Shown: positions 1-16,631 of the stretch, piece after piece
Numbering within the stretch: the first letter of the stretch is position 1
How the letters are laid out: the number at the start of each line of letters is the position of its first letter
Origin: Verrucomicrobiota bacterium
GTDB taxonomy: Bacteria; Verrucomicrobiota; Verrucomicrobiia; Limisphaerales; Palsa-1400
Reading direction: 5' to 3'
Assembly (NCBI GenBank): GCA_049510745.1
Contig: JBEKYR010000019.1
Coordinates: forward strand, 26,697 to 90,696
DNA length: 64,000 nucleotides
The notes under the pieces: model-generated
What the model was told of the DNA's origin: nothing
What the model saw: only the letters and a program-made list of their open reading frames with translations
The model's database searches: none
Made by a program: the position numbers and the translations under genes

Positions 1-822
1 GCGGGCGCGTCGGCCTGCACGGACGTCACGGGCTTCGGCCTCTTCGCCCATCTGCTGCGGATGCTGCGGCCGGGCGGACTGGGCGCGGAAATTTTCGCGG
101 AGACGCTGCCGGCCTTCGACGGCGCGATGGACGCCCTGCGGCAAGGCGTGATTCCGGGCGCGATTGAGCGCAACCGCGAGTATGCCGGCGACGCGCTTCA
201 CGTTGCGCCGGGCGTAAACGAGGCCGCGGTGAACCTGGGATTCGACGCGCAGACTTCCGGCGGCTTGCTGATCGCCGTTCCGCCGGAGCGGCTGGAACGG
301 TTGCGGCAATCTCTGGCCCGGCGCGGCGCCGGCCATTTTGTCATCGGCAAAATCGTTGCTGAAGCCGGACAGATTTATCTTTCAGCGGCCGGCAACAACA
401 CGGCGGAAATTTCAAGATTGAATTCAACCCTTCAACCGCGGAACATTGATTCCATGACAACACCAAAGAAAAATTCCCCGCCCCGCCACGGCGATTGCTG
501 CGCGGGCGCGGGCGAAACCGCAGCCGGTTCCGCCGCCGAATCAGAAAAGGCCTTTGACGCGCTGATCCGGTCGGTGCGATCGGCGGGCGCGCTGGATGAA
601 AAGACGAAGGAACTTATTCTGTTCAGCCTGGTCGTGGGCAGCCGTTGTCAACCATGTTTTGAGGCGCATCTGCGCAAGGCGCGCGAACTGGGCCTCTCGC
701 AGGCGGAACTGGACGAGGCGGCGTGGTGCGCCATCGCCCTGGGCGGCGCGCCGGTCATGATGTTTTATCAGGAATGCCTGGAGCGGATTCAATCGGGCAA
801 GGCGGACCGGGCGCGACCTTGA
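1..822 (+). CDS. selD: Selenide, water dikinase (5'-truncated) fused in frame to a C-terminal carboxymuconolactone decarboxylase/AhpD-like domain
   Basis: Frame is open from base 1. It contains the SelD motifs ACTDVTGFGLFAH and DAQTSGGLLIAV, then a linker, then ALDEKTKELI...CQPCFEAH (CMD/AhpD CxxC). tRNA-Sec lies 4.6 kb away. Confidence 0.9.
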   Translation, partial: AGASACTDVTGFGLFAHLLRMLRPGGLGAEIFAETLPAFDGAMDALRQGVIPGAIERNREYAGDALHVAPGVNEAAVNLGFDAQTSGGLLIAVPPERLERLRQSLARRGAGHFVIGKIVAEAGQIYLSAAGNNTAEISRLNSTLQPRNIDSMTTPKKNSPPRHGDCCAGAGETAAGSAAESEKAFDALIRSVRSAGALDEKTKELILFSLVVGSRCQPCFEAHLRKARELGLSQAELDEAAWCAIALGGAPVMMFYQECLERIQSGKADRARP

Positions 823-932
823 GCGCAAATGCGGCGTTTTCCGCTGGAGATCTGCATAACTTGCCAAATCACCAATAAAAGCACGTCTTTCGACTCCAAT
901 CTTGGAATAACTTCATGCGAGAATACTTTTGT

Positions 933-987
933 ATAAAGTTATATAAAATAAACGTTGACGTACTTCACTAAAATGGTATAACTTTAT
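933..987 (+). promoter_or_regulatory. Sigma70-type promoter with inverted-repeat operator for the TA operon
   Basis: TTGACG (955-960), 16 nt, TATAAC (977-982) with extended -10 TG. Perfect 11-bp inverted repeat ATAAAGTTATA (933-943) / TATAACTTTAT (977-987). Confidence 0.65.
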
Positions 988-990
988 GCC

Positions 991-1236
991 GTGATTACAA
1001 CATTTAAAACCGACACGGTTAATTTTGGCGCCAAAGGCCAGGTGGTCATCCCCCGCCGTCTGCGCAGGGAATTTGAAATTGAGGAGGGGACGAAGGCGCA
1101 GGTGTATGTTGAGAACGGCCAGATTGTGCTCAAACCGATCACGTCGAAATTCATCAGAAGTTTGCGCGGCTCCTTGAAGGGCACCAAGGCGATGGAAACC
1201 TTCATGGCGGAACGGAAGCGGGAAAGGGAATTATAA
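991..1236 (+). CDS. AbrB/MazE/SpoVT-family antitoxin
   Basis: KGQVVIPRRLRREFEIEEG AbrB signature; overlaps the PIN gene (TAATG). Confidence 0.9.
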   Translation: MITTFKTDTVNFGAKGQVVIPRRLRREFEIEEGTKAQVYVENGQIVLKPITSKFIRSLRGSLKGTKAMETFMAERKREREL

Positions 1237-1637
1237 TGGCCACCAAGGTTCTGGACAGTTGGGCACTCATGGCGCTCTTCAATGAAGAACCCGCCGCCAG
1301 CGCGGTGGAAAAACTTCTGGCCCAAGCCGCTGCTGACCGGCACAAACTTTTGATGAGTGTGGTGAACTGGGGTGAAATTTATTATTCCGTGGCACGCGGA
1401 GCTTCCCGCGAAATGGCGGAACAAAAAGCCAAAGAAATTGCCGCCATGCCCCTTGAGATTGTGCCTGCCGATCTTCACCAGACTCACCAGGCTGCGATTT
1501 ACAAGGCCGCGTGCAGAATGTCCTACGCCGACTGCTTTGGCGCGGCCCTGGCCAAGATCAAAAACGCAGAGTTCGTCACCGGCGACCCGGAATTCAAAGA
1601 AGTTGAGAAGGAAATAAAAATCAACTGGCTGAAATAA
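1236..1637 (+). CDS. vapC: VapC-family PIN-domain toxin
   Basis: VLDSWA, NWGEIYY, SYADCF and VTGDPEF PIN motifs; 133 aa. Confidence 0.9.
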   Translation: MATKVLDSWALMALFNEEPAASAVEKLLAQAAADRHKLLMSVVNWGEIYYSVARGASREMAEQKAKEIAAMPLEIVPADLHQTHQAAIYKAACRMSYADCFGAALAKIKNAEFVTGDPEFKEVEKEIKINWLK

Positions 1638-1655
1638 TCGCAGCCCGAGAAAACT

Positions 1656-3950
1656 ATGGCATACGAAGAACTGGTCATTGATCTACTGAAGGCGGAGCGT
1701 GAGGAAGACGTTACTGCCGCGCTCACAGTCTATGGCTTGGAGAAATTCACTGATTCGAATTGGATTCCATATGGGGGAACGCTTTTTGAAAATAATTACG
1801 GATTGATAGGGACGCAACAGGCTGATTCGCTTGGCGCTCTAGTCGAAAAGGTCGTGAATTCGATTGATGCAGTTCTGATGCGGGAATGTCTAGCGAGAAA
1901 CCTCGATCCCAGAAGTAATCTTGTGCCGCGAACGATGAACGAAGCGGCTGAACAGTTCTTGAACATTCCAGAAGGCAATTTAGCCAAGCTGTCTCCAACA
2001 CAACGGACAGAACTGGCCGAAAAGAATATCAGCATCATCGTGACAGGGCAGAAGCCTGACGAAGGCAACCCATGCATCATAGTTGCTGACACCGGAGAGG
2101 GACAGAGGCCCGAAGACTTCAAAGACACCCTTGTTTCATTGCTTCGCAGCAACAAATGTTCTGTCCCGTTTGTTCAGGGCAAATTCAACATGGGCAGTAC
2201 TGGCAGCCTAGTGTTTTGTAGCCCGAACAAGAATTACCAGTTGATCATTTCACGACGTAACGCGGCAATTCCTACAGCCCGAAATTCAAAATGGGGATTC
2301 ACTTTAATCAGGAAGCGTCCTCCAATGAAGAATGAGAAGAATGAGCGTTATGAATATCTCGCGCCGAAAGGGAAGATCTGTGAACTCGATCTTGATGAAA
2401 TCCCAATTTTTCCAGACGCCGAAAATGTGCCCTACAAACGCCCAATCAAATGCGGGACGATCGTAAAGCTTTACGAGTATGACCTTCCGAGAAGTATAAA
2501 GACGATGGCGACCGCAGATTTCTACCGGGCTTTATCAACCAAGCTCTGGACGGTGGTCGTTCCGATGCGAATTTATGAGGCGCGGGGTTACAAAGGTCAC
2601 ACTCTTGAGAGCACGTTTTCTGGGATGAACATCCGGCTTGAAGATGACAAAGGTGACGTCCTGGAGGAAGGGTTTCCATGCAATTTTACTCTTAATATTC
2701 CGAAGGTCGGAATGGTTGATGGGCGCATTTGCCTATTCAAAAAGGACGCCGAAATCTCACGTTGGGTAAGTTCACGAGAGGCGATCATTTACACTATTAA
2801 CGGCCAGTCTCACGGCGCGCTGCCGAATGATTTTTTCCGACGCCAGTCAGTCAATCTCCCGTGGATACAGAAACAACTCTTGATCAACATTGATTGTTCG
2901 CGCCTCGACCAGCAATTGATCAACAGAATGTTTATGACCAGTCGCGACAGGCAGCGCGATGTTCAGGAAAAAGACTTCCTAGAGTCTGCCCTGGCCGAAT
3001 TTGTTCGCAAGCATCCGGGGCTTCGGGAGTGGAACGAGCGACGCCACAGAGAAACGGTCGAGGAACAGTTCGTGGAGGAATCAGAAACGATCGAACTATT
3101 TGAAAAATTAGTAGCGCAGAATCCAGCACTCGCTGAGATTCTCGGTGTTGGTCTCAAAATCAAAGTCCCAAAGCCCGGCGAACAGCCGACTTCAAAGTTC
3201 GAAGGCCAAAGATTCCCAACGTTTTTGAAACTCGAAGACGCCCATAACAACGACGATTTCGTCAAAAAGTGTCCCCAGAATTCCTATTGTCGCGTTACTT
3301 TATTAACCGATGCGGAAAACGATTATTTGGTCCGAGCGATTGAGCCGGGGAAACTTATCATCAGACCGGAAGCATTGGTCAAGAGTACTAGCCTCTACAA
3401 TGGCCGGTTGGAACTGCAACTAGCCCCGGAAAAAATGTACGATGTTGGTCACCGTATTGAAGTAAAGGTAATGTTAACCAGCCCGAACTCGACCGAGGGC
3501 TACTTTTCAGTTCGGTTTTGGCTGGAGATCGATTCGCCAGTGCAGCCAAAGAAGAGTCCTCCCAGCCCGCCCAAGCCGCCAAAAGTAACGACCGTGGCCC
3601 TGCCTGAAATCAAAGAAATCAAAAAGGATCAATGGGCCGAGGCTATCGAAATTACTTCCGACGATGATGTCGTGAAGATAATGAAGGACAACCAAGGGAC
3701 GACTTCTCTCGTGAACATGGATAATCGCCACTACCGCCGCTATGTTTACGCCAACCCCAAGCGAGAGCAGGAGATTAGAAACCTCTACAAGATCTCATCA
3801 ACAATCATGGGGCTTTGGCTGCTCGAACAGGTTGATAAAGGTGGTCTCCAGGAGGAAAACCGAAGATCGGTGAGTAACTCACTTGGCCGGCTTCTGCTTC
3901 CTTTGGTTGATTCACTAGGGAGCAAGTTGGCTGAATTAGAGCAAGGGTAG
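1656..3950 (+). CDS. GHKL (MORC/Hsp90/MutL-like) ATPase-domain protein with uncharacterised C-terminal region
   Basis: Bergerat motifs EKVVNSIDA, DTGEG and QGKFNMGSTG; visibly lower GC than flanks. Confidence 0.75.
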   Translation: MAYEELVIDLLKAEREEDVTAALTVYGLEKFTDSNWIPYGGTLFENNYGLIGTQQADSLGALVEKVVNSIDAVLMRECLARNLDPRSNLVPRTMNEAAEQFLNIPEGNLAKLSPTQRTELAEKNISIIVTGQKPDEGNPCIIVADTGEGQRPEDFKDTLVSLLRSNKCSVPFVQGKFNMGSTGSLVFCSPNKNYQLIISRRNAAIPTARNSKWGFTLIRKRPPMKNEKNERYEYLAPKGKICELDLDEIPIFPDAENVPYKRPIKCGTIVKLYEYDLPRSIKTMATADFYRALSTKLWTVVVPMRIYEARGYKGHTLESTFSGMNIRLEDDKGDVLEEGFPCNFTLNIPKVGMVDGRICLFKKDAEISRWVSSREAIIYTINGQSHGALPNDFFRRQSVNLPWIQKQLLINIDCSRLDQQLINRMFMTSRDRQRDVQEKDFLESALAEFVRKHPGLREWNERRHRETVEEQFVEESETIELFEKLVAQNPALAEILGVGLKIKVPKPGEQPTSKFEGQRFPTFLKLEDAHNNDDFVKKCPQNSYCRVTLLTDAENDYLVRAIEPGKLIIRPEALVKSTSLYNGRLELQLAPEKMYDVGHRIEVKVMLTSPNSTEGYFSVRFWLEIDSPVQPKKSPPSPPKPPKVTTVALPEIKEIKKDQWAEAIEITSDDDVVKIMKDNQGTTSLVNMDNRHYRRYVYANPKREQEIRNLYKISSTIMGLWLLEQVDKGGLQEENRRSVSNSLGRLLLPLVDSLGSKLAELEQG

Positions 3951-4126
3951 TTCAAGTCCGCGTCTCCGCGCCTTACAGAAGCTGCGGAATTGAGAGACAG
4001 GCTGGAAGCGCTGTCCCACGTTGAGGGGCATTGGGAACATCGAACTAAACACAAGCCTGGGTTGTTAAACAATCTTCACCCACTTTCAACCTTCACCTTG
4101 AGTTTTAGCCACCCTAAAGCGGATCC

Positions 4127-5011
4127 TCACTTTTGACACTCCTCATTAGACGTGGTTTGCGGCAGGGCAAAGCACGGTTCAATGGCGCCGCAGGTGGCGC
4201 ATTCCAGGCAGCGGATGCAGCCGGAAACGTTGACGGCCTGATCCACTTTCACACCCATCGGGCAGCGGCTGCGGCAGAGGTTGCATTCGACGCATTGCTG
4301 CGGATTGAACCGGAGATGAAACAGGCTCAACCGGTTGAAGAGCGCGAGCAACCCGCCGAGCGGACAAAACACGCGGCACCACGGCCGGTGAATGAAAAGC
4401 GCGGCCGCAAGAAAGGAGAGCAAAATGCCGCTCTTCAACCCGCTCATCAGCCAACCGTTGCCGGCAAGCAGGCTTTGCACGGAGTAAGGCACGCCGGCTT
4501 CCAGCGCGCCGGCCGGACAAAGCCGGCAAATGGAAATGACCTGCCTTTCAAATGGAATGCCGTTGAAACCCAGAATCAGCGGCAGAAGAATCACCAATCC
4601 TACCAGAACGAAGTAACGGCCGTAACCGGTCCAGGACGGCAGGATGATTTTCCGGGTGGTGATTTTGCCGAGCAAGTCCTGGAGAAAACCGAACGGACAA
4701 GCCCAGCCGCAAACGATGGAACCGCCGGCCGCGCCGACGAGCACGAGCACGCCGATCAATAAATACGGCACTTCCCCCGCCACTGGCAGCAGCGCCGCGT
4801 AGTTGGCCATCACACCCACCGGGCAGGCGAAGGCCGAGAGCGGGCACGAGTAACAGTGGAACACGCAGCCGGGAATGCCGTGCAGCCACCGGCCCAGCGG
4901 CGCGAGCCACAGGCCGAGAAAACCGGTTTGCACCCAGGGACGCCAGCGCGAGAGTTTTCGTCCGAGCGCCGCCGGCTTCCATTCAGGGCAATTGGGAACG
5001 GGACATTCCAT
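4127..5011 (-). CDS. Membrane 4Fe-4S binding protein (NapH/MauN-like polyferredoxin)
   Basis: CGWACPFG and WCRVFCPLG motifs, C-terminal CVECNLCRSRCP and CIRCLECATC, several TM segments. Confidence 0.9.
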   Translation of the reverse strand: MECPVPNCPEWKPAALGRKLSRWRPWVQTGFLGLWLAPLGRWLHGIPGCVFHCYSCPLSAFACPVGVMANYAALLPVAGEVPYLLIGVLVLVGAAGGSIVCGWACPFGFLQDLLGKITTRKIILPSWTGYGRYFVLVGLVILLPLILGFNGIPFERQVISICRLCPAGALEAGVPYSVQSLLAGNGWLMSGLKSGILLSFLAAALFIHRPWCRVFCPLGGLLALFNRLSLFHLRFNPQQCVECNLCRSRCPMGVKVDQAVNVSGCIRCLECATCGAIEPCFALPQTTSNEECQK

Positions 5012-5021
5012 GGGAACAGGT

Positions 5022-5040
5022 CGGCCACGCCACGTGGCCG
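5022..5040 (-). promoter_or_regulatory. Putative SECIS hairpin 3
   Basis: CGGCCAC-GTGGC-GTGGCCG, a perfect 7-bp stem with the loop at +21..+25 from the TGA at 5056-5054. Confidence 0.75.
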
Positions 5041-5044
5041 GAAT

Positions 5045-5419
5045 TCATCTTATTCAGGTGGGACAGGGCGTTTTTGCGCCGAGGTCCACGCGGATTTTCC
5101 ACGCCGGCGGCTGGGTATGGGCCTGTTGTTTGGCCCAGCGGTCAAGCGCCTCGCCGGGATTGGCCACGGCATCGAGTTTCGGCGGCGGCGGCGGCGCGAC
5201 TTGGTCCGGGTATTGCAAACCGCCGGAGGAGAAGGCTTTGACCAACTGCGTTTCCCACGCCGTGTTTCCGTCCGTGGTGTCCACGTTGGTCAGATGCCGC
5301 GCGCCGCTAAACAGCAGCGCCGCGCCGGTCAGCGCGACAACCAAGCCGGACCAGAAATCGTGGTCTTCCCGCGCGCGCGACGCGCGATTGACCGGTGGCT
5401 GGGGGACTCGCTTGAACAT
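5045..5419 (-). CDS. Putative small membrane selenoprotein, 124 aa, ending ...KTPCPT-U-IR (CxxU; Sec122)
   Basis: ATG at 5419, one TM helix, Cys-Pro-Thr-TGA, SECIS-like hairpin at conserved spacing, directly downstream of selC. Without recoding the ORF ends at 5054. Confidence 0.7.
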
Positions 5420-5437
5420 GCTACGGATTGGGGAAAA

Positions 5438-5534
5438 TGGCGGAGGTGGATGGGAATCGAACCCACCTGGGACTTTGTTGAGTCCCACGCTGGTTTTGAA
5501 GACCAGGAGCGCCACCAGGTCGCCCCACACCTCC
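5438..5534 (-). tRNA. selC: tRNA-Sec (anticodon UCA), 97 nt
   Basis: Acceptor GGAGGTG/CACCTCC, G discriminator plus encoded CCA, anticodon arm CTGGT-CTTCAAA-ACCAG, long variable arm TGGGACT/AGTCCCA, T-loop TTCGATT. Confidence 0.95.
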
Positions 5535-5694
5535 CCGGCGGACCGCCGCGCCGCTGGCCAATGGCAGGCGTGATTGATTTCCGGCGGGCCGCATCACACA
5601 GGTATATTGACAGATTGGAGCGGATAACTCAATCCGAATTTAGTCGCCAGCCGCGCCATAAATGGCAGACTGTTTGCACGTCAGGAAAGAATTT

Positions 5695-6531
5695 ATGGAC
5701 ATTCGAAAAGCCGTCATCACCGCCGCCGGTCCGGGCCAGCGGACGCTGCCGCTGCAAACGCTGGTTGACCGCGACGGCAAAACCAAGACCGCGCTCGGCA
5801 TCATCGTGGAGGAGGCGCTCAATTGCGGCGCGGAGGAAACCTGCGTGGTGGTCCATCCGGGCGACGCCGAGGCCTACCGCGCCGCCGCCGGGCCGCACGG
5901 CAAGCGATTGCAGTTCGTGGAGCAGGAGAAGGCGCTGGGCTACGGCCACGCCGTCTGGTGCGCCCGCGCCTTCACCGGATCGGAGCCGTTTCTGCTCCTG
6001 GTCGGCGATCATCTTTATCTGAGCCGGGAGAAACGCAGTTGCGCGCGGCAATTGGTCGAGGTCGCCGCGGCCGAGGCCTGCGCCGTTTCCGCCGTGCAGG
6101 CCACGCACGAAAGCAAACTGCCCTATTACGGCGTGGCGGGCGGGCGGCTGGCGGAGAACCGCAAAGGCCTTTACCTCATTTCCGAGGTGCTGGAGAAACC
6201 GACCCCGACCGTCGCCGAACAACGCCTCATCGTTCCCGGATTGCGCGCGGGCCATTATCTTTGTTTTTTCGGGATGCACGTTCTGACGCCGGCGGTGATG
6301 GATTTGCTGGGGGCGGAAATGGCCGCCGGCCAGGCGGCCAGCCTGAGTCAAACACTCGCCAAGCTGGCCAGCCGCGAGCGCTATCTGGCCTGCGAATTAC
6401 AGGGACGCCGGTTTGACATCGGTTTGAAATACGGCCTGCTGACCGCGCAACTGGCGCTGGCCCTGAGCAGCCCGGCCCGCTCCGAAGTGCTCGCCGGACT
6501 CGTCGAACTCCTCGCCCAGGAACCCCATTGA
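5695..6531 (+). CDS. Sugar-phosphate nucleotidyltransferase (GalU-like)
   Basis: [27 protein letters not shown] and EKP motifs. Confidence 0.85.
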
Positions 6532-6539
6532 TCACGCGC

Positions 6540-9500
6540 ATGGCCAGCCCGCTCCTCGACATCATCACCTCGGCGGACGCGAGAATTCGCAACCAGCCGC
6601 TCGACGCCTTTTGCGCCCGCGCCCCGGCAGATGAACTGCTGGCGGCCTGCGCGGAACTGGAGGGCTTCCGCCGCCGCAGCGACAATCTTTACGAGCGCGT
6701 CCGCGCGTTGTTCTTCCTTTACGCGATTCACCGTTTTCATCTGCCGGGGAAACTGCCCGCGGGCGCGGACGGCATGATTCCCTTCAAAGGATTCGAACAT
6801 CTGCTGCACCGCCGGTTTGAAGAGGCGCTCGACCAGTTTCTTTCCGCGCAAAAAAGCGGCGGCCCCAGCGACGCCCTTTGCAGCGCGCTGGCCGCCGTGT
6901 ATCAACGCATCGGCTTTCAGACGCTGGCCGACCAGGTGCGGCGCAGCGTCCGTTCGGTGCGCGGCAACCAATGGATGTTCCGCATGGGCCATCCGGAGGA
7001 TCATCCGTTGCGCGTGCGCCCGGAACTGCTGCAACGCGGCGCGGACGGCGCCTTCCCCGTGCTGCGCGAACGCACCCCGGTGCGGATGGATTTGAGCCAT
7101 TCGGGCTGGAGCGACATTTTCTTTCTCGGCATGGATTTTCCCGAAGGCGCCCGCGTGCTCAACGTCTCCATTGACCTGGGCGTTCACGGGCGCGACCAGG
7201 CGGCGCAGCCGCCGGTGGAGGCCTGCTTGCGGGTGATTGACGAACCGGTTTTGCGCCTGACCAGCGTGGACCTCGGCGCCACGGCGGAGATCAACAATCT
7301 GGCCGAGGTTTTTGATTTCGCCCGCGACTACCTCGGATTGCTCAAAGCGGCCGTCATCGCTGCCGGCATTGTGCCGCCGGGCATTGAAGGTTCGGGACTC
7401 AATCTGGCCGACTTGCTCGCGCGGGTCGCCGGGGCCGGGCGCGGCCTGGAATTGGTCAGCCACGTCAACGATATTCCGAAAGGCTCGCGCCTGGCGGTCT
7501 CGACCAACCTGCTCGCCTCGCTGATTTCCGTCTGCATGAGGGCCACCGGCCAGGCCAAGTCGCTGACTGGCGCGCTGGCCGAGGAGGAACGGCGCCTGGT
7601 GCTGGCGCGCGCGTTGCTGGGCGAATGGCTCGGCGGCTCGGGCGGCGGCTGGCAGGATTCCGGCGGCGTGTGGCCGGGCATGAAACTCATTTGTGGCGTG
7701 ACCGCGACGGAAGGCGATCCCGAATTTGGCATCAGCCGGGGCCGGCTCATGCCGGCGCACCGCATTCTGGATCGCCACGACGTTTCGTCCGAGACGCGCG
7801 AGCGTTTGCAGCAAAGCCTCGTGCTCGTCCACGGCGGCATGGCGCAAAACGTCGGGCCGATCCTCGAAATGGTGACGGAAAAGTATCTGCTCCGTTCCGC
7901 CGCCGAATGGGCCGGACGGCAGCAGGCCATCGGGTTGCTCGATGAAATCGTGTCGGCGCTGCGCGCCGGAGATGTGCGCGGGGTGGGCGCCCTGACCACG
8001 CGCAATTTTTGCGAGCCGATCCAAACCATCATTCCGTGGGCCAGCAACGCCTTCACCGAATCGGTCATCGCGTCCGTGCGGGACGAGTTTGGCGCGGATT
8101 TCTGGGGGTTCTGGATGCTCGGCGGCATGTCCGGCGGCGGGATGGGTTTCATCTTTGAGCCGCAACGCAAGGCGCGGGCGCAGCAGCGGTTGCAGGAAAT
8201 CATGTCGCAAACCAAGCGCGAACTGCAACACGCGCTGCCCTTTGCCATGGAGCCGGTGGTCTATGATTTCGCCATCAACGAGCGCGGCACCTGGGCGGAC
8301 CTGCTGCGCGGCGACGAGGCGTTGCTGCCGCGCGGCTACTACGCGCTGCATGTTCCGCGCTGGCTGCGGGCCGATCCGCAGGCGCTGACCAGGGCGCAGC
8401 GCGCCGAACTGGACAAGTTCGGCGCCGCCTGCCGCACGCGAACGGAATTGTCCGGCATGATGCAGACGCTCTTCGACCGCCTGCTGCCCCGGCTCAAATC
8501 CGAGGGCGGCTCCCAGCAAAGCCTGGCGGAATTGCTCGAACAAAACGGCTTCGACCGCGTGCAGCATGAGCAGATTCGCGACGATTTGAAAGACGGCCGC
8601 ATCGGCTTGGCCCAAAACCGCCTGCCCGCCAGCGCCGACATCAAGGACGTGCAGGATGCCGATGTGTTCAATGCCACCGGGCCGTTGGCGGAGGAATTGC
8701 GCCAGGCCGGCCTGGCCGCCCTCGCCCGCGGCGAACTGGCGGTGGTCACGCTGGCCGCCGGCGCGGGCAGCCGCTGGACGGAAGGCGCTGGTGTGGTCAA
8801 GGCGCTGCATCCGTTCTGCAAATTCAACGGCCTGCACCGGACGTTCATCGAAACGCACCTGGCCAAGAGCCGCCGTATCGGCCAACTGGCCGGCCAGACG
8901 CTGCCGCACTTCTTCACCACCAGCTACCTGACCCACGCGGCCACCGAGGAATTCCTGCGCCGGAAGAAAAATCATCATTATCCCGGACCGCTGCTCCTGT
9001 CGCCCGGCAGGTCCATCGGGCTGCGGATGATCCCGATGGTGCGCGACCTGCGCTTTCTCTGGGAGGAGATGCCGCAGCAACGGCTCGACGAGCAGCAGCA
9101 AAAAGTGCGCGACAGCCTGCGGGCCGCGCTCCTCAACTGGGCCCGTTCGGCGGGCGAGGGCGGCGATTACACCGACAATCTCCCGGCCCAATGCCTGCAC
9201 CCGGTGGGACACTGGTTCGAGGTGCCGAACCTGCTGCGCAACGGCGTGCTGGCGCGCTTGCTCGCCGAACGTCCGCAGTTGCGGCACCTGATGTTGCACA
9301 ACATCGACACGCTCGGGGCGGACGCGGACCCGGCGCTCTTCGGTTTGCATCTGGCGCAGGAGGGCTGCCTGACGTTCGAGGTCATCACGCGCCGGCTGGA
9401 GGACCGCGGCGGCGGCCTGGCCCGCGTTAATGGCCAGGTGCGGCTGGTGGAAGGACTGGCCATGCCGCGCGAGGAGGATGAGTTCCAACTCCGCTTCTAC

Positions 9501-9860
9501 AATTCAAACACCTGCTGGATCGACATCGACAAACTGCTGGCGGTTTTCGGCTTGAGCCGGGCCGACCTTTCCAAGGCGGAACACGTCGCCGCCGCCGTGC
9601 GCGCGCTGGCCGCGCGCATGCCGACCTACATCACGATCAAGGATGTCAAGAAGCGCTGGGGCCACGGCCAGGAAGACGTGTTCCCGGTCAGCCAGTTTGA
9701 GAAACTGTGGGTGAACATGACCGCGTTGCCGGAAGTGAAAACGCGCTTTGTCGTGGTGCCGCGCCTGCGGGGACAACAGCTCAAGGACCAGGCGCAACTG
9801 GACGGCTGGCTGCGCGATGGCTCGGCCGATTTCGTCAACCAGCTTTGTGCCTGGCCGTGA
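6540..9860 (+). CDS. Bifunctional GHMP sugar kinase / UDP-sugar pyrophosphorylase fusion
   Basis: [22 protein letters not shown] and GGMSGGG (GHMP); C-terminal [24 protein letters not shown] and QFEKL (UDPGP family). Confidence 0.85.
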
Positions 9861-9910: not shown

Positions 9911-12010
9911 ATGGCAAAGCAAAAGACTGGTGGCTTATCATGGCGCTGGCTGGGAACCGCCGGGGTGGCTTGCTGGACGTGTGCGCTGTTGGTTGTGCTT
10001 TGCTCGGAAAACAGGCTTCGCGCGGCTGATTCTCTTCTTTCCGGTTCTCCGTCCTCAAACGCCGTCATGGCTGCGCTGGAGTATCAGGAAACAGACTCTG
10101 GCGTCATCAACTGGGGCGTTTCCCTGACGCCGCGGACCAGTCCTTTCAAAAAAGAGCCGGCGGCGGCTTCGGGCAAAATCATTCGCGGCGTTTTGAATTT
10201 CGGCGCCGATTCCAGCAACTCCATTCCCTTTCTCTGGCAGTGCCAGGCGGGAAAACTTTACCTCGACCTCAATCGCAACCAGGATTTGACCGACGATCCC
10301 TCCGGCCTGTTCTTGGCGCGCGCCGCGAAGCCGGATAATTACCAGACCTTTGCGAACGTCCACCTGCTTTTCAACACCGCTTCCGGCAGGTGCCGGGTGC
10401 TGGCGGACCTCTCCTTCTGGGACTACAGTGCGCCGCCAATTTGCAGCTTCGCGGTGCGCTCGTTCTGGCAAGGCAAACTGAGGTTGCAAGGGCGGGATTG
10501 GCAGGTGGGCATCGTCCCGAATATCCTGGACCGATCGGGCTTGTTCGAGAACAGCCGGTTGCTGCTGCGTCCCTGGGATAAACGAAGCCAGCCGTTCAAC
10601 GCGGATGATGGGTTGCTCGCCACTGTTCCCTTCTCGCGGAAACTTTTTGTGGATGGCCACGCCTATCAACTGGAGTGCGTCGCCCGTTCGCAAGACGGCG
10701 AAGCCAGGCCCGCGCTCCAATTCACGGAACAATCCGTCGCGCTGGGCGAAGTGAAAATCACCGGCCAATTCATCCGCCGCCTTGTTCTGCAGGGCGAGGC
10801 GTTCCTGGTGGTGCTCGATCAGCCGGCAGGCGTCGTGAAAATCCCGGCCGGCAGCTATCACCAGCCCGAGATCCTGCTCGAACAAGACGGCGTCGCGGCC
10901 TTCTCCCGCAATTCCGGCCAGTGGCAAATTGGCCGGCAGATTTCCGTGCGCGACAAGGCACAGGTGGCATTGAACGCGGGCGGGCCGTTGACCAATTCCG
11001 TCGCCACCGGCCGCCACGGTCAGGATTTGCGTCTGGATTATTGCCTGCTCGGCGTGGGCGGCGAAACTTACCAACTGGCCAGGCAAGATCGCTCCAAGCC
11101 GCCGGAGTTCGCGGTTTACAAGGGCGGAAAAAAAATCGCGTCCGGCAGATTTGAGTTTGGCTGAGGCAACACCTGCTCGCACTCATGGCGAGTGCCTCTC
11201 ACCGCCGGCGGCAAACTGTCCCTTGTGGCTTCGTCCGACCTCGGAGCGCTCGGTGCGAAGGAAGGTCCGGCGGTCATCTACGACTGGGTGTTGCCCAGCC
11301 TGGCGCCGCTGTTGCTGCCGTGGCTGGTCATTCTGGGATTGCTCACCTTGAAACGGAATCGTTGCGCGGCCGCGTGGTGGATTTGGCTGCCGCTCGGATA
11401 TGTGATCGCGTTTACGTTGGCGCCGCTGGACATCATGCCCGCGGGAACAGATTTTTTCCTGGATGTCATCGCGGCGCTGGCGGCGGGGCTGGGCGCGGTC
11501 TGGCTCCTGACAGATTATCTCCGGCGGCCACATCGGTTCGTTACGTTTCTGTGCCTCCTGCTCGCCTTGGCCGGTTTCAGCGCGCTGGCCTTTGTGTCCG
11601 CACAAAGCTGGAGTTTCACGTCGGAAACATTTGTGGCCGGCATCGTTCTGGCCGTGGGCGTGGTGGTCAGTGCGGTGGCGTTGAGTCTGGCCGGGCTGAT
11701 CTGCCGCGGCCGTTATCGTCGCGTCGGCCTTTATGGGTGGCTGCTCCTCTTGCTGGCCGTCATCTGGCTGGTGATCACCGGGCCTTTCTTTTTGTTCGCG
11801 CTCATCGCTTCAGGCGGAAGAGTGTCTTGGGGCGGATTCTTTGTTCCCGTTTTTGCGTTGGTGACGCTCCATTTCGCCACCCTGCTGCCGTTCCTGATCC
11901 TGTCCTCGGCCAGCCCGTTTTACCGCCAACGGCTCAAGGCCCTGCTGCACGTCACACCGGAAGCGCCGCCCGTGCTGGCGCCTTTGCCGGATGCCGGTTT
12001 AAAAACTTGA
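9911..12010 (+). CDS. Putative selenoprotein A, ~699 aa: exported domain, FEFG-U-GNTC (Sec418), then a multi-TM domain
   Basis: ORFs 9893-11164 and 11192-12010 are in one frame, separated only by the TGA at 11162-11164. The motif and hairpin recur in the next gene. Confidence 0.8.
11179..11195 (+). promoter_or_regulatory. Putative SECIS hairpin 1
   Basis: GCACTC-ATGGC-GAGTGC, loop at +21..+25 from the TGA. Confidence 0.8.
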
Positions 12011-12041: not shown

Positions 12042-13313
12042 ATGAAACTTTCCAAACAACTGTTCCTGGCCGGAATGGTTCTCGCCGGCGCCGCCTTCGC
12101 GCAATCCGAGCAATGGCTGGAATACCACACCGGCGCCGAGGGCCGCGCCTACCAGCAGGTGGAACTGACCACCAATCCGCCCCCCGGCGTCGCTCTGCCG
12201 AAGTTCAATGCGCCGCCCTATTTCGCCCGCTGGCTCACGCCGATGGACCCCGCCGGCGGGCGCTGGCTCTGCCTGGACCGCACGCGCAAGTCCGGACCCT
12301 ATGACCGGCTGTTCTTTGACAACAACGGCAATGGCCGGCTGGACGACAAATCGCCCCTCCCGGCGCGGCTGGATTCCTCCTTCGCCTATTTTCCGCCAGC
12401 CCGCGTTGTGTTCAAGGGCGAGGACGGGCCGATCACCTATCATCTTGTCTTCCGCTTCTATCAATACGAAAAGAATCCCCCGCAATTGCTGGCCTCCTCC
12501 GCCGGCTGGTATGAAGGTCTGGTCAATTTCGACGGCGCGAAAAAGCGCATTCAACTCATCGACGGCAACGTCAACGGCACGTTCAACGACGTCGCCCCGG
12601 ACCCGTATGACTGCGACCGCGTCCAAGTCGAGGGCGACAAGACCAGCGAACGGTTTTTGGGCCGGATGCTGGAAGTGGACGGGAAGTTTTACCGGATCGA
12701 AGCCGCCCGCGACGGCGCGTTCGTCAAAGTGCAGAAGGCGGAGAACGTCACCCTCGGCCAGGTGCGTGTGCCGGAAAACATTTCCGAATTCGCCGCCTTC
12801 GGCCCGAACGGCCATTTCGTGCGCACACCGGCGGACGGCCAATTCACCTTGCCGGCGGGCCATTACCGGATTTTCCACTGGACGATCAGCCGCAAGGATG
12901 AAAAGGGCGCGCCGTGGACGCTCTCAGGCTATAATTTTCCCAAAACCGCCACCTTCGAGGTCGCCGCCGATAAGACCGCCTTGGTGCAAATCGGTGAGCC
13001 GGTGCAAGCCGTGCTCAAGGCGGCGGAGGGCGCCAAGCGTCAAGTCGATTTCAGCCTCAGCTTCGTGGGCCGGCAAAAGGAATCCATCGAGATGCTGTGC
13101 GACGGCCAGCGCCCGCGCGGGCCGAAATTGACGTTGGCCAACAGCGACGGGACGCTGTGTTATACGAACACTTTCGAGTTTGGATGAGGCGGCGTTTGCT
13201 CGCTCTCATGGCGGGAGCCTAAAAATGTGCGGCGTCCGTTGGTTGGCGGCGTCAAAATTTTCAGCCCGTTCCAGGTGCTGACGAGTCCGTTGACGCTCGC
13301 GCCAAAAAAATAA
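12042..13313 (+). CDS. Putative selenoprotein B, 423 aa, secreted, FEFG-U-GGVC (Sec382)
   Basis: Signal peptide. The TGA at 13185-13187 is followed by 41 open codons to TAA 13311-13313, 12 nt before the next ATG. Same motif as protein A. Confidence 0.8.
13202..13218 (+). promoter_or_regulatory. Putative SECIS hairpin 2
   Basis: GCTCTC-ATGGC-GGGAGC, loop at +21..+25; compensatory changes relative to hairpin 1. Confidence 0.8.
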
Positions 13314-13325
13314 ACTGATCATCGC

Positions 13326-16300
13326 ATGAAAACGACACGGCAATTCCTTCTGGTCTCTGCCGCTTGGGCGCTCCTGGGCGTCAGCACGCACGCCCAGACG
13401 CTGGAGCGGGTGGGGGTTCAAAAAGTGGCGGACACAGCCACGAACGCTGGCGCGCAAAAACTTACCGGAACGGTCACCGACGCCGCCGGCCATCCCCTGG
13501 CCGGCGCGACGGTGGAGTATTGGCGTTACGAGGGAAATCGGCTCCTGGCGAGTCCCTTGGAATTGATCGGGCAAATCACTACGGAAACGAACGGCGCTTT
13601 TGAATTCCAACTCTCGCGGGCGGCCGGATTCCTCCTGGCACGAAAGCCGGGCCTGGCCCCGGCCTGGATACAATTGGGCCAGCCGTATCCTTCCGTCGGT
13701 GACAGGGGAGAGAATTTGATGCTGACTCCGCCCGCGGCGCTGGCGGGCGTGGTGGTGGACGAAGCGGACAAACCTGTTCCAAACGCCCGGGTTTCCGTGG
13801 CCATTGCCATCTCCGAAATGTCGCAGGAGGAGGGAGCGCGAAGTCTTAATTATTTCACTGGCAAACCCGCGCGCGATTGTTTTGCCGCCCGCACGGATGC
13901 CGCCGGCCGTTTCCGCATCGAGAATTTTCCGACCAATGGCACGGCCGCCCTGACCGTTCAGGCGCCGGGAAAAGCTCTGCGCCAATCACCGCAGGAAGCC
14001 GGCGGCATGGACTCGCTGCCTTGGCGCGCGGGCCAGCAAGACATCAAATTGGTCGTGGAACCGGCCGGCAGCGTCGAAGGAAGGATTATCGTCGAGGGCA
14101 GCAATCAACCGCCGCCCGTCGCGCGGCTGACGTTGCAGCCCGATGGGCCGGGCTTTGCCGCGCTTGACGAGCGCGAGCCGGCGCCATCCGGCGCGGACGG
14201 CGCGTTCCAACTCAGCGACGTGCCCGCCGGTTCTTATCACATTCATGCCGTCTTTGGAACCAATGCCGTTCCGGAATGGGTCGCAGACATGGTTCCAGTT
14301 TCGGTTGAGTCCGGCCAACCCACGCGCGGCGTGCAGGTGACTGCGGTGCGCGGCGGCGTGCTGGAAGTGGCCGTGCTGGGTCAAAATGATCGCAAACCAC
14401 TGGCGCAAATTATGGTCAATGCCGTCAAGGAGAATTTTCAATCCGCCGCCAGTTCGGACAGCAACGGCATCGCTCTCCTGCGGCTGCCGCCTGGAGATTA
14501 TCAGGTGGCGGCGTTTCGTGAATCCATGCCCGCGAGCCAGACTCCCGCCAGCGTGGAAGCCGGCAAAACCAACCGCGTGGAGATTGAAATCGCCCCGCCG
14601 AGAAAAATCACCGGCATCGTCCGCCAACCGGACGGCCAGCTGGCGGCGGGGTTGCGGGTGAGATTGGTGGGTGGGTTTGGCCCCGGGGCGGGCGAAGTCA
14701 AGACCGATCCCGGCGGCCAGTTTAGTTTGGAATGGAATCAGCGCCGATTCGGACAGAACGACACGACTGCCTGCGTTCTCGTGCGGGACGCGGAACACAA
14801 TCTGGCCGTGGCGCAGGACATTGACGAAGACACCGGCCCGCTCGACCTGAAACTCGCGCCGGGGCTGACGCTGGCGGGCCGGGCGGAATCCGACGGCAAA
14901 CCCCTCACGAACGCGGCCGCCGCGCTGATTTTCTTTACCGGCAGAAGGGGCATGCACCTCGCCGGATTGAGCCGCGAAACCAACACGCCGGGCCGGTTTG
15001 AAATTCCCGCCATTCCGCCCGGACGAAAATACGGCGTCCTGGTCTCCGCTCCGGGTTACGGACAGAAGGCGAATTACGATGTGAATGCCGCCGCCGAAGG
15101 TGGCCGCATGGAACTGGATCCCTTTGAGCTTAAACCTGCCAACCTCAAACTCGCCGGCCAGTTGCTCGACGCGGACGACAAGCCGGTCGCAGGCGCCTAT
15201 GTGAATCTTTACGGAGAGGGCCAGCCCAGTGCAAACGCGCGCACGGACCGCGAGGGTCGCTTCCGCTTCGAGCATGTCTGCGAAGGCCCGGCTCGAATCT
15301 CGGCCAACAAGCAGAATTCATTCGGCAATATGTCGGCGGAAGGCGGCGACACCAACGTCGTTCTGCGGCTCGGTCAAACCCTCAACAACTCCCCGGGTTC
15401 CACCGCCCATAAACTCAAAGGCACTGTGACCGACCCCGACGGCAAACCCGCCGCCGGCGCGCAGTTGGCGGTGTTTCCGTCCTTTGATGTGAGTTGGACA
15501 AAGACCGCGACCAACGGCGCCTTCAGCCTCACTTGGTCGCTCCAGCCCTGGCAAATGCAGCAGTCAGGCGGCGCCGCGCTGCTGGTGGCCCGCGACCCGG
15601 CCCGCAATCTGGCCGCCACCGAAGAGTTGCCGGAGGAAACCACCAACCTCGACGTGAAATTGAAACCGGCCCTGACCGTCACCGGACTGGTTGAAAAAGA
15701 TGACGACTCTCCACTCGCGGGCGCGCAGGTCGGTGTCTGGCTCAAGGCGGGCAACATGTACGACCAGTTGAACCAACAAATGGCTGGGACCGACGCCCAA
15801 GGCCGCTACGAAATCAAGTGCCTGCCGCCGGATGCGTCATACATTGTTTTCGCCACCGCCAGCGGCCACGGTCGAAGCCAGCAGCAAGTTCAGAACGATT
15901 CCGAAACAAACCGCGTGGAACTATCGCCCTTCGTCCTCAAGCTGGCCGACCGTTTTTTGGCCGGCCAGGTGCTCAACGAAAATGACAAGCCCGTTTCCGG
16001 CGCGAACGTGTCGTTGAATGGCGAAGACCAGCCCCAAGCCAGCATGACCACCGACAGCAAGGGCCGCTTTCACTTCCAGGTTTGCGAAGGGCAGGTCCGC
16101 CTCTTCGCCAATTCCCCCCAAGGCGGTGAATTCGCGCAAGCCACCGCCGAAGCGGGCGACACCAACGTCGTGATGACTTTGAGTTCCCAGGCGGGGAATA
16201 TCCGCGAGACACCGCACCGCGCCTCGCTCAAAGGCAGTCCGCTGCCGGACTTGGCGGCCGTCAATCTCGCCGGCGACGCCGCCCCCGCCGGCCAGCCGGT

Positions 16301-16631
16301 GTTGTTATGCCTGTTCGACGCGGGCCAGCGTTCGTCGCGACACGTCGTCCACCAGTTGGATGGACAGGCCCCCGCGCTGCGGCAGCAAGGCGTCACGGTG
16401 CTGGGCGTTCAAGCCGCGGTCACCAGCGATGACATACTCAACGAATGGAAAAGCGCCAGTCCGGTTTCATTCCCGCTCGGACGCGTGGCGGAGAAATCCG
16501 AAAAATCAAAATGGGCCTTGGCCGTTCCGGCCTTGCCGTGGCTGATCCTGGCCGACGCCCATCATCGCATCATCGCCGAAGGCTTCCCGCTCGACGACCT
16601 GGACGCGCAGATCAAAACCCTGGCCAAGTGA
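13326..16631 (+). CDS. Secreted protein with tandem carboxypeptidase-regulatory-like beta-sandwich repeats and a C-terminal degenerate thioredoxin/TlpA-like domain
   Basis: Signal peptide, repeated G.V.D..GKP..GA.V and TD..GRF units; C-terminus LKGSPLPDL...PVLLCLFDAGQRSS...ALPWLILAD. Confidence 0.75.
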   Translation: MKTTRQFLLVSAAWALLGVSTHAQTLERVGVQKVADTATNAGAQKLTGTVTDAAGHPLAGATVEYWRYEGNRLLASPLELIGQITTETNGAFEFQLSRAAGFLLARKPGLAPAWIQLGQPYPSVGDRGENLMLTPPAALAGVVVDEADKPVPNARVSVAIAISEMSQEEGARSLNYFTGKPARDCFAARTDAAGRFRIENFPTNGTAALTVQAPGKALRQSPQEAGGMDSLPWRAGQQDIKLVVEPAGSVEGRIIVEGSNQPPPVARLTLQPDGPGFAALDEREPAPSGADGAFQLSDVPAGSYHIHAVFGTNAVPEWVADMVPVSVESGQPTRGVQVTAVRGGVLEVAVLGQNDRKPLAQIMVNAVKENFQSAASSDSNGIALLRLPPGDYQVAAFRESMPASQTPASVEAGKTNRVEIEIAPPRKITGIVRQPDGQLAAGLRVRLVGGFGPGAGEVKTDPGGQFSLEWNQRRFGQNDTTACVLVRDAEHNLAVAQDIDEDTGPLDLKLAPGLTLAGRAESDGKPLTNAAAALIFFTGRRGMHLAGLSRETNTPGRFEIPAIPPGRKYGVLVSAPGYGQKANYDVNAAAEGGRMELDPFELKPANLKLAGQLLDADDKPVAGAYVNLYGEGQPSANARTDREGRFRFEHVCEGPARISANKQNSFGNMSAEGGDTNVVLRLGQTLNNSPGSTAHKLKGTVTDPDGKPAAGAQLAVFPSFDVSWTKTATNGAFSLTWSLQPWQMQQSGGAALLVARDPARNLAATEELPEETTNLDVKLKPALTVTGLVEKDDDSPLAGAQVGVWLKAGNMYDQLNQQMAGTDAQGRYEIKCLPPDASYIVFATASGHGRSQQQVQNDSETNRVELSPFVLKLADRFLAGQVLNENDKPVSGANVSLNGEDQPQASMTTDSKGRFHFQVCEGQVRLFANSPQGGEFAQATAEAGDTNVVMTLSSQAGNIRETPHRASLKGSPLPDLAAVNLAGDAAPAGQPVLLCLFDAGQRSSRHVVHQLDGQAPALRQQGVTVLGVQAAVTSDDILNEWKSASPVSFPLGRVAEKSEKSKWALAVPALPWLILADAHHRIIAEGFPLDDLDAQIKTLAK

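Follow-up and report, generated by a model that had tools for sequence, protein, structure and literature searches.

On the reverse strand of the window, by which we mean the whole stretch of 64,000 nucleotides analysed here, a selenocysteine tRNA gene (tRNA-Sec, selC) is followed by a small open reading frame (ORF), called CPTU after its predicted ending, and by a gene for a 4Fe-4S membrane protein. The original prediction had read this as a putative selC operon, and all of its elements are present: the tRNA-Sec, the 18-nt gap, the one-helix ORF, the C-P-T-TGA-Ile-Arg-stop ending, the hairpin and the 4Fe-4S membrane gene. The features of the locus are listed below with the evidence for each.

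1..822, + strand: 3' part of selD, fused to an AhpD/CMD domain (family matches)
4127..5011, - strand: 4Fe-4S membrane protein, 294 aa, PF12801 (Pfam, alignment)
5022..5040, - strand: SECIS-like hairpin, wholly 3' of the likely true stop (folding, covariation)
5045..5047, - strand: likely true stop codon (TAA/TAG in 37 of 55 loci, TGA in 18 of 55)
5054..5056, - strand: predicted Sec codon TGA, U122 (TGA in 55 of 55 distinct loci)
5045..5419, - strand: CPTU protein, 124 aa if read through (ORF, homologues; topology predicted from charge)
5438..5534, - strand: tRNA-Sec (selC), ending in CCA (ARAGORN; Rfam)
9911..12010, + strand: X1, predicted selenoprotein, F-G-U-G-N-T-C, TGA at 11162-11164 (read-through, loop scan)
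12042..13313, + strand: X2, predicted secreted selenoprotein, F-G-U-G-G-V-C, TGA at 13185-13187 (signal peptide by eye)
13326..16631, + strand: large exported repeat protein with PF13620 repeats (Pfam)

The tRNA-Sec carries the anticodon TCA and was found by both ARAGORN and Rfam (RF01852, 70.7 bits against a cut-off of 47). Its CCA and the ATG at 5419 are exactly 18 nt apart; in relatives this gap ranges from 24 to about 450 nt, the spacing being variable and adjacency alone kept. SelA, SelB, SelC and SelD are all present in the source genome, with selABD 3-8 kb from the small ORF and selA and selB just left of the window. Across the order, SelA occurs in 17 of the 18 genomes with CPTU versus 105 of 301 overall, and the lone exception is 57% complete. 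SelA was not found in genome G006 (91% complete) despite a CPTU gene and a tRNA-Sec. The 20 genomes in which the Fe-S gene and SelA occur together all sit among the 23 best of the 105 SelA scores, hinting at a SelA subtype that may travel with the cluster.

Several regions around these genes have features of their own. The selD-AhpD/CMD fusion (L001:16002-17516) has a C-terminal domain like that of the MduS and ArsM-AhpD selenoproteins, with Cys and not Sec at the catalytic position. In several relatives selD and the Fe-S gene lie tail to tail; in the window they are separated by a region of low GC (900-4100; 49% versus 60% for the genome), which encodes a 764-aa protein with a weak GHKL-ATPase match and a small gene pair, matching no family, that we take to resemble a PIN toxin-antitoxin module. 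Between selC and X1 (5662-9860, + strand) are a GalU-like nucleotidyltransferase and a sugar-kinase/UDPGP fusion. The C-terminal domain of the large repeat protein (16161-16631), also without a family match, is presumably thioredoxin-like, and in 17 of 18 aligned copies it has Q-R-P/S-S-R at the site expected for CxxC.

Codon pattern and hairpin of the CPTU gene

The CPTU ORF reads M...KTPCPT-TGA-ATA-AGA-TGA, giving a C-terminus of C-P-T-U-I-R if the first TGA is recoded. It has a single hydrophobic helix (residues 22-40), and its charges point to a layout in which the N-terminus would lie inside, followed by the helix, an outer amphipathic segment, a Pro-rich linker and the C-terminal CPTUIR. 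We pooled 59 loci, some retrieved by protein search and others as the genes preceding Fe-S homologues; the 55 distinct ones come from Verrucomicrobiota and two unassigned metagenome contigs, and are kin, hence not independent. The first stop is TGA in all 55 (preceded by C-P-T in 54 and C-L-T in one), with one additional locus in agreement. The second stop lies two residues further on in 47 loci, one residue in seven and immediately after the TGA in one, and is TAA in 28, TGA in 18 and TAG in 9. A TGA that never changes, next to a second stop that varies freely in codon and shifts in position, is what recoding would be expected to produce. Hydrophobic-basic residues are also conserved 3' of the first TGA. 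In the source genome TGA is the commonest stop, ending 1472 of 2560 long frames (57.5%); of these 1472 frames, 103 run into another stop within three codons, 65 are followed by a comparable hairpin and 3 show both.

All 120 close homologues among the matches listed end in C-P-T, as do 84 of 106 representatives found with a profile, the others being 6 variants and 16 with other endings (mostly fragments or frameshifts by eye). The usual comparison of Cys and Sec forms fails here because a Cys-containing homologue was not found: a C-x-T-C ending occurs in 0 of the 120 homologues among the matches listed and in 0 of the 106 representatives, and the CPTC variants raised by the original prediction did not turn up among the homologues. 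Longer or fused CPTU forms were also not found at E<=0.001 among 8000 candidates, which is weak evidence on this point. Three weak CPTU matches (G033, G293 and G214) were dropped, and the one that was inspected lacks the C-terminus.

The hairpin has a stem of 7-8 bp, and its loop begins 20-21 nt after the first TGA and merely 11-12 nt after the second. In the available text of PMC13188914, the bSECIS model is given as a stem of 4-16 bp and a loop of 3-9 nt, located 16-37 nt from the UGA, with a folding energy of at most -7.5 kcal/mol. The window hairpin falls within these ranges for stem, loop, distance and energy, and by the distance range given there the first TGA fits and the second does not. 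It folds at -15.2 kcal/mol (z -2.8), with 3 of 200 shuffled sequences equally stable. A hairpin follows the TGA in all 55 distinct loci, with the loop beginning 19-25 nt on in 54. Among 18 loci, which are kin and from which the stem columns were themselves picked, 97.6% of stem cells pair and double-sided changes occur at 5 of 7 pairs; none of 500 shuffles scored as high, and slid controls pair at 24-55%. The window loop, GUGGC or UGG, has G in its first two positions. Most relatives have an AUGGC or ACGGC loop with G in third place, which would satisfy the strict bSECIS rule only if A and C close the loop.

A promoter was not found on the coding strand at the locus. In two peat metatranscriptomes there are contigs of relatives, mostly below 90% identity, one covering the tRNA and the ORF start and another the ORF end and the Fe-S gene start; DNA may be present in these data, and contigs by their nature do not demonstrate a transcript.

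With TGA as the first stop in 55 of 55 loci and covariation of the hairpin in 18, the sequences make the C-terminal CxxU that was originally proposed very likely, and we have little doubt that the CPTU ORF encodes a selenoprotein. CPT-TAA or CPT-TAG endings, or homologues without the hairpin, were named beforehand as evidence against this, and neither appeared among the 55 distinct loci. Three points speak against Sec: the lack of a Cys homologue among those collected, the third-place G in the loop of most relatives, and G006, in which SelA was not found.

The 4Fe-4S partner and its linkage to CPTU

Named relatives belong to Verrucomicrobiota (Limisphaerales and subdivision 3), with records from peat, bog and groundwater. 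In the 301 genomes of the order we found the small gene in 18, the Fe-S gene in 22 and SelA in 105, and each genome with CPTU has the Fe-S gene as well. Of the four in which only the Fe-S gene was found, three carry a shorter CPT-TGA gene upstream, and the fourth is at a contig edge. TGA codons flagged within two Fe-S genes proved to be their normal ends. Neighbours were examined in 29 genome loci (linkage to X2 was counted by hand): the Fe-S gene is next in 28, a further 5' neighbour in 22 is tRNA-Sec, and 13 have sel genes downstream in convergent orientation. Among 10 genomes from further afield in the phylum, seven have a CPT-TGA gene of 80-110 aa ahead of the Fe-S gene, frequently following selB or preceding X1. 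Two others (G473 and G660) have a CPS-U-GG protein in that place and no convincing CPTU match, and the remaining one (G365) has no adjacent CPTU, its CPT-TGA gene and hairpin being located elsewhere in the genome. Two metagenome contigs carry a more distant form with the same gene, hairpin and Fe-S partner.

The CPS-U-GG proteins form a selenoprotein family of their own (CPSU-GG; L071:772-1353, L072, and L077 near 8372), with the motif C-P-S/T-U-G-G-x-G-G-Y, a 42-48 aa tail and a hairpin. In loci L053 and L058 all cluster genes are in several pieces, which are probably long-read assembly errors and not decay.

The Fe-S gene starts 33 nt past the second stop of the CPTU ORF. Its product has two CX3CP motifs and a C-terminal two-cluster ferredoxin domain, invariant in 40 of 40 aligned rows except for C265. 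Five more cysteines (C53, C56, C63, C162 and C165) are invariant in all 40 rows, and a sixth predicted outer-face Cys occurs at a variable place. The distribution of charges suggests that the five invariant cysteines face outward; a simple hydropathy scan gave four peaks and missed the first predicted helix, and the outward-facing topology is itself a prediction. A solved structure of the membrane part was not found, the single-chain model has a pLDDT of 53.7, and Foldseek and a wide search gave nothing usable.

The partner has two CX3CP motifs, several helices and a C-terminal ferredoxin domain in common with NapH/MauN (TIGR02163), NosR, RdhC and YccM. The original description of it as NapH/MauN-like did not hold at the level of family membership: it scores 44.5 bits versus a TIGR02163 cut-off of 213, with the N-terminal 85 residues unmatched. 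NapH was not found in 151 genomes of the class, so the alignment with the partner was made without any NapH sequence. In contrast to the partner, E. coli YccM does not have the five outer cysteines, and the neighbour of the partner is a selenoprotein.

The proposed pairing of the two proteins is supported by their adjacency in 28 of 29 loci and by co-folding, which gave a complex score of 0.76 (runs of 0.83, 0.76 and 0.76) versus 0.00 for the best of three controls. For calibration, 116 of 157 solved complexes attain this mark, against 2 of 215 mismatched pairs, and these figures apply only approximately with our own alignments. At least 77% of contacts are shared among the runs, and partner pLDDT is at least 79. 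CPTU was modelled in its 121-residue standard-code form, without U-I-R. Its helix (25-36) packs antiparallel on partner residues 83-94 in the model, and its segment 56-66 packs on 62-70; the interface lists include CPTU 7-18 and 118-121 and partner 63, 162 and 225-285, and give no residue pairing. The model supports binding of CPTU to the Fe-S membrane protein, and we consider it probable that CPTU is the small subunit of a membrane Fe-S complex.

The best plasmid match of the partner, 37.6% identical and with all five outer cysteines kept, is an Fe-S protein of Peptoclostridium acidaminophilum (WP_025437090.1). Directly before it is a small one-helix CxxC protein of the CD1871A family (NF040920; WP_168023683.1), and a TlpA gene is near the pair. 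CD1871A is a 45-aa protein with CxxC, in contrast to the 80-125 aa and CxxU of CPTU. Judged by this one clostridial example, CPTU would fill the CD1871A slot ahead of the five-Cys Fe-S protein, with homology unsupported by HMM or profile: the NF040920 model (cut-off 32 bits) matched neither the window CPTU nor 48 aligned members nor two short forms (control 63.4), and had no hit over the cut-off in 401 genomes of the phylum, and a profile comparison gave a 78% match over little more than the helix. By analogy, the CPTU pair can be regarded as a Sec counterpart of the clostridial CxxC and 4Fe-4S pair. No literature on the CD1871A name was found.

The surrounding cluster and its possible function

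The X1 and X2 genes diverge from selC in the window and are co-directional with it in relatives. The N-terminal part of X1 is beta-rich and its C-terminal part hydrophobic. The X2 model (pLDDT 91.3) is all-beta and places Sec in an Ig-like domain at the C-terminus; residues 299-402 gave generic Ig-like matches alone (best Z 9.3, rmsd 2.1, 75 aligned), the remainder being barely tested. Look-alikes of X2 are found in unnamed Planctomycetota and Verrucomicrobiota clusters. Conserved coding sequence continues past the TGA in both genes, the F/Y-G-x-G sites in long frames of the scanned loci have TGA in 34 of 34 cases, and CPTU, X1 and X2 have a common loop 20 nt after the TGA. Read through, X1 and X2 match no NCBIfam family. 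The suggested link of the CPTU pair to exported selenoproteins is supported by the presence of X2 upstream in 16 of the 21 loci whose upstream sequence extends to 6 kb or more (the other 5 have no X2 nearby), and X1/X2 linkage is seen in other classes too.

Directly before selA (L001:7203-12472, + strand) are genes for a double-cubane reductase (NF040772, 401 bits versus a cut-off of 350), a methyltransferase, two dehydratase-like subunits and an activase, and the block is found again in part in 9 of 39 loci (5 of 29 and 4 of 10). Double-cubane proteins are tightly tied to genomes with SelD (available text of bioRxiv 10.1101/2022.07.06.499078) and also to the SAO locus (same source, and available text of PMC10418091). 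Like the SAO locus and other selenoprotein neighbourhoods (Haft and Gwadz; Haft and Tolstoy), this cluster has grouped selenoprotein genes that are truncated at TGA in databases, and as in SAO-type loci a double-cubane protein and an activase are alongside. It differs in having no ABC transporter, in its motifs and in its phylum, and no Sao (SaoL, SaoB, SaoP, SaoC, SaoT, SaoX), Tso or Mdu family was found at cut-off among the scanned neighbours.

A scan of the source genome for this specific loop yielded 64 sites; the three cluster genes were the only ones that looked credible. A general genome-wide selenoprotein scan recovered one of these three and is too insensitive to show absence. No internal stops were found in 2 molybdopterin and 14 AhpC-TSA matches.

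Our leading reading, held tentatively, is an outward electron relay to a C119-U122 selenenylsulfide that reduces X1 and X2; a reducing relay to exported selenoproteins of some kind is plausible. In the relay for which we infer topology, chemistry, electron direction and acceptor, low-potential cytoplasmic electrons would enter the two [4Fe-4S] clusters of the partner, pass both CX3CP motifs at the inner face and cross to the five-Cys site at the outer face. This site would reduce the C119-U122 selenenylsulfide on the flexible CPTU tail, which in turn would reduce the U-x-x-x-C centres of the co-encoded exported X1 and X2. DsbD and CcdA are membrane reductant carriers, and the relay would do a similar job using Fe-S clusters in place of thioredoxin; the likeness is one of proposed role alone, with no sequence relation to the CPTU pair. 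The source genome has a separate DsbD domain (PF02683) on contig C11, which we count against the relay. We also count against it the 5 of 21 loci without X2 nearby, the divergent X block of the window, set apart by the two sugar-nucleotide genes, and the different CxxU protein beside the Fe-S gene in G473 and G660. In the available text of PMC5928378, CX3CP is without an assigned function even in NapH relatives, so electron transfer across membranes by such polyferredoxins is a proposal.

Sec is able to ligate clusters in heterodisulfide reductase A and hydrogenase delta subunits. C119 and U122 could likewise be metal ligands that join the five or six outer cysteines in completing a site for an Fe-S cluster or another metal, giving an all-cluster wire with no selenenylsulfide turnover. 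The five invariant cysteines, the sixth and the two tail residues would add up to seven or eight ligands, the modelled interface lists both the tail and C63/C162, and the available part of a 2026 review table has CxxU in heterodisulfide reductase A and hydrogenase delta subunits. We nevertheless judge it rather unlikely, as the linker of the tail can be just a few residues or as many as about 50 long, a variability in keeping with a swinging arm, and in the related CPSU-GG proteins a soluble domain follows the motif.

Capture or conversion of a selenium or organometal compound is distinctly unlikely as the main function, and would be compatible with the relay as its purpose. The exported selenoproteins would bind the compound, the membrane pair would reduce it or pass it inward, and the double-cubane reductase, methyltransferase and SelD-AhpD would process it. 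The double-cubane protein above cut-off, activase and methyltransferase directly before selA, the recurrence of parts of this block in both sets of related loci and the reported tie of double-cubane proteins to SelD genomes are in favour, as are the three cluster genes being the only credible selenoprotein candidates in these low-sensitivity genome scans. Against it, no transporter was found among the scanned neighbours, and investing selenium in three selenoproteins merely to acquire more of it makes little sense if hardly anything else in the cell uses it.

Still less probable is that the partner works like NapH, oxidising quinol to supply a periplasmic terminal reductase, and that the selenoprotein stands in for NapG. 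Quinol oxidation has been proposed for NapH and NosR (available text of PMC5928378), and the partner shares with them the membrane module, with two CX3CP motifs and two clusters; the low TIGR02163 score and unmatched N-terminus argue against it, and no reductase or napG/mauM-like gene was found among the scanned neighbours. That the TGA is a plain stop, with the protein ending at C-P-T and the hairpin a processing or stability element, is hardly credible: the frequency of TGA as a stop, the missing Cys variants and the score of the same hairpin as a weak terminator on the opposite strand favour it, but the TGA is invariant while the second stop varies freely, conserved residues lie beyond it, the loop distance is fixed, X1 and X2 have the same loop equally far from a TGA that lies within conserved coding sequence, and the coding strand has no U-tract.

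Significance of the new predicted selenoprotein families

No NCBIfam or Pfam family passes for CPTU, CPSU-GG likewise matches no NCBIfam model, and the available part of a 2026 inventory table has no row that fits CPTU, X1/X2 or CPSU-GG. These phyla are not mentioned in the available text of PMC13326102 and PMC12013277, and our literature search found no description of the family; candidate lists in paper supplements could include these families. CPTU proteins are always annotated as ending at the TGA stop. With no Cys homologue found and Sec 0-2 residues from the end, they are missed by searches for Cys/Sec pairs. At least three selenoprotein families are added by this analysis: CPTU, X1/X2 (G-U-G-G-x-C) and CPSU-GG.

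We regard the CPTU pair as the Sec form of a module that is annotated but uncharacterised, lying within a selenoprotein neighbourhood that is itself new. Within the NapH/NosR/YccM module, one uncharacterised branch gains a testable partner and a conserved five-Cys site, and the double-cubane reductases, whose natural substrates are unknown, gain a second, unrelated selenium context. A broader reading, possible but on balance doubtful, is an undescribed transmembrane reducing route in which the Fe-S protein and its Sec arm would serve exported Ig-fold selenoenzymes whose product is handled by the double-cubane reductase, with a Cys-only form in clostridia (CD1871A, 4Fe-4S protein and TlpA). If true, this would be an alternative to DsbD that needs no thioredoxin, and it would place the double-cubane enzymes in a substrate context.
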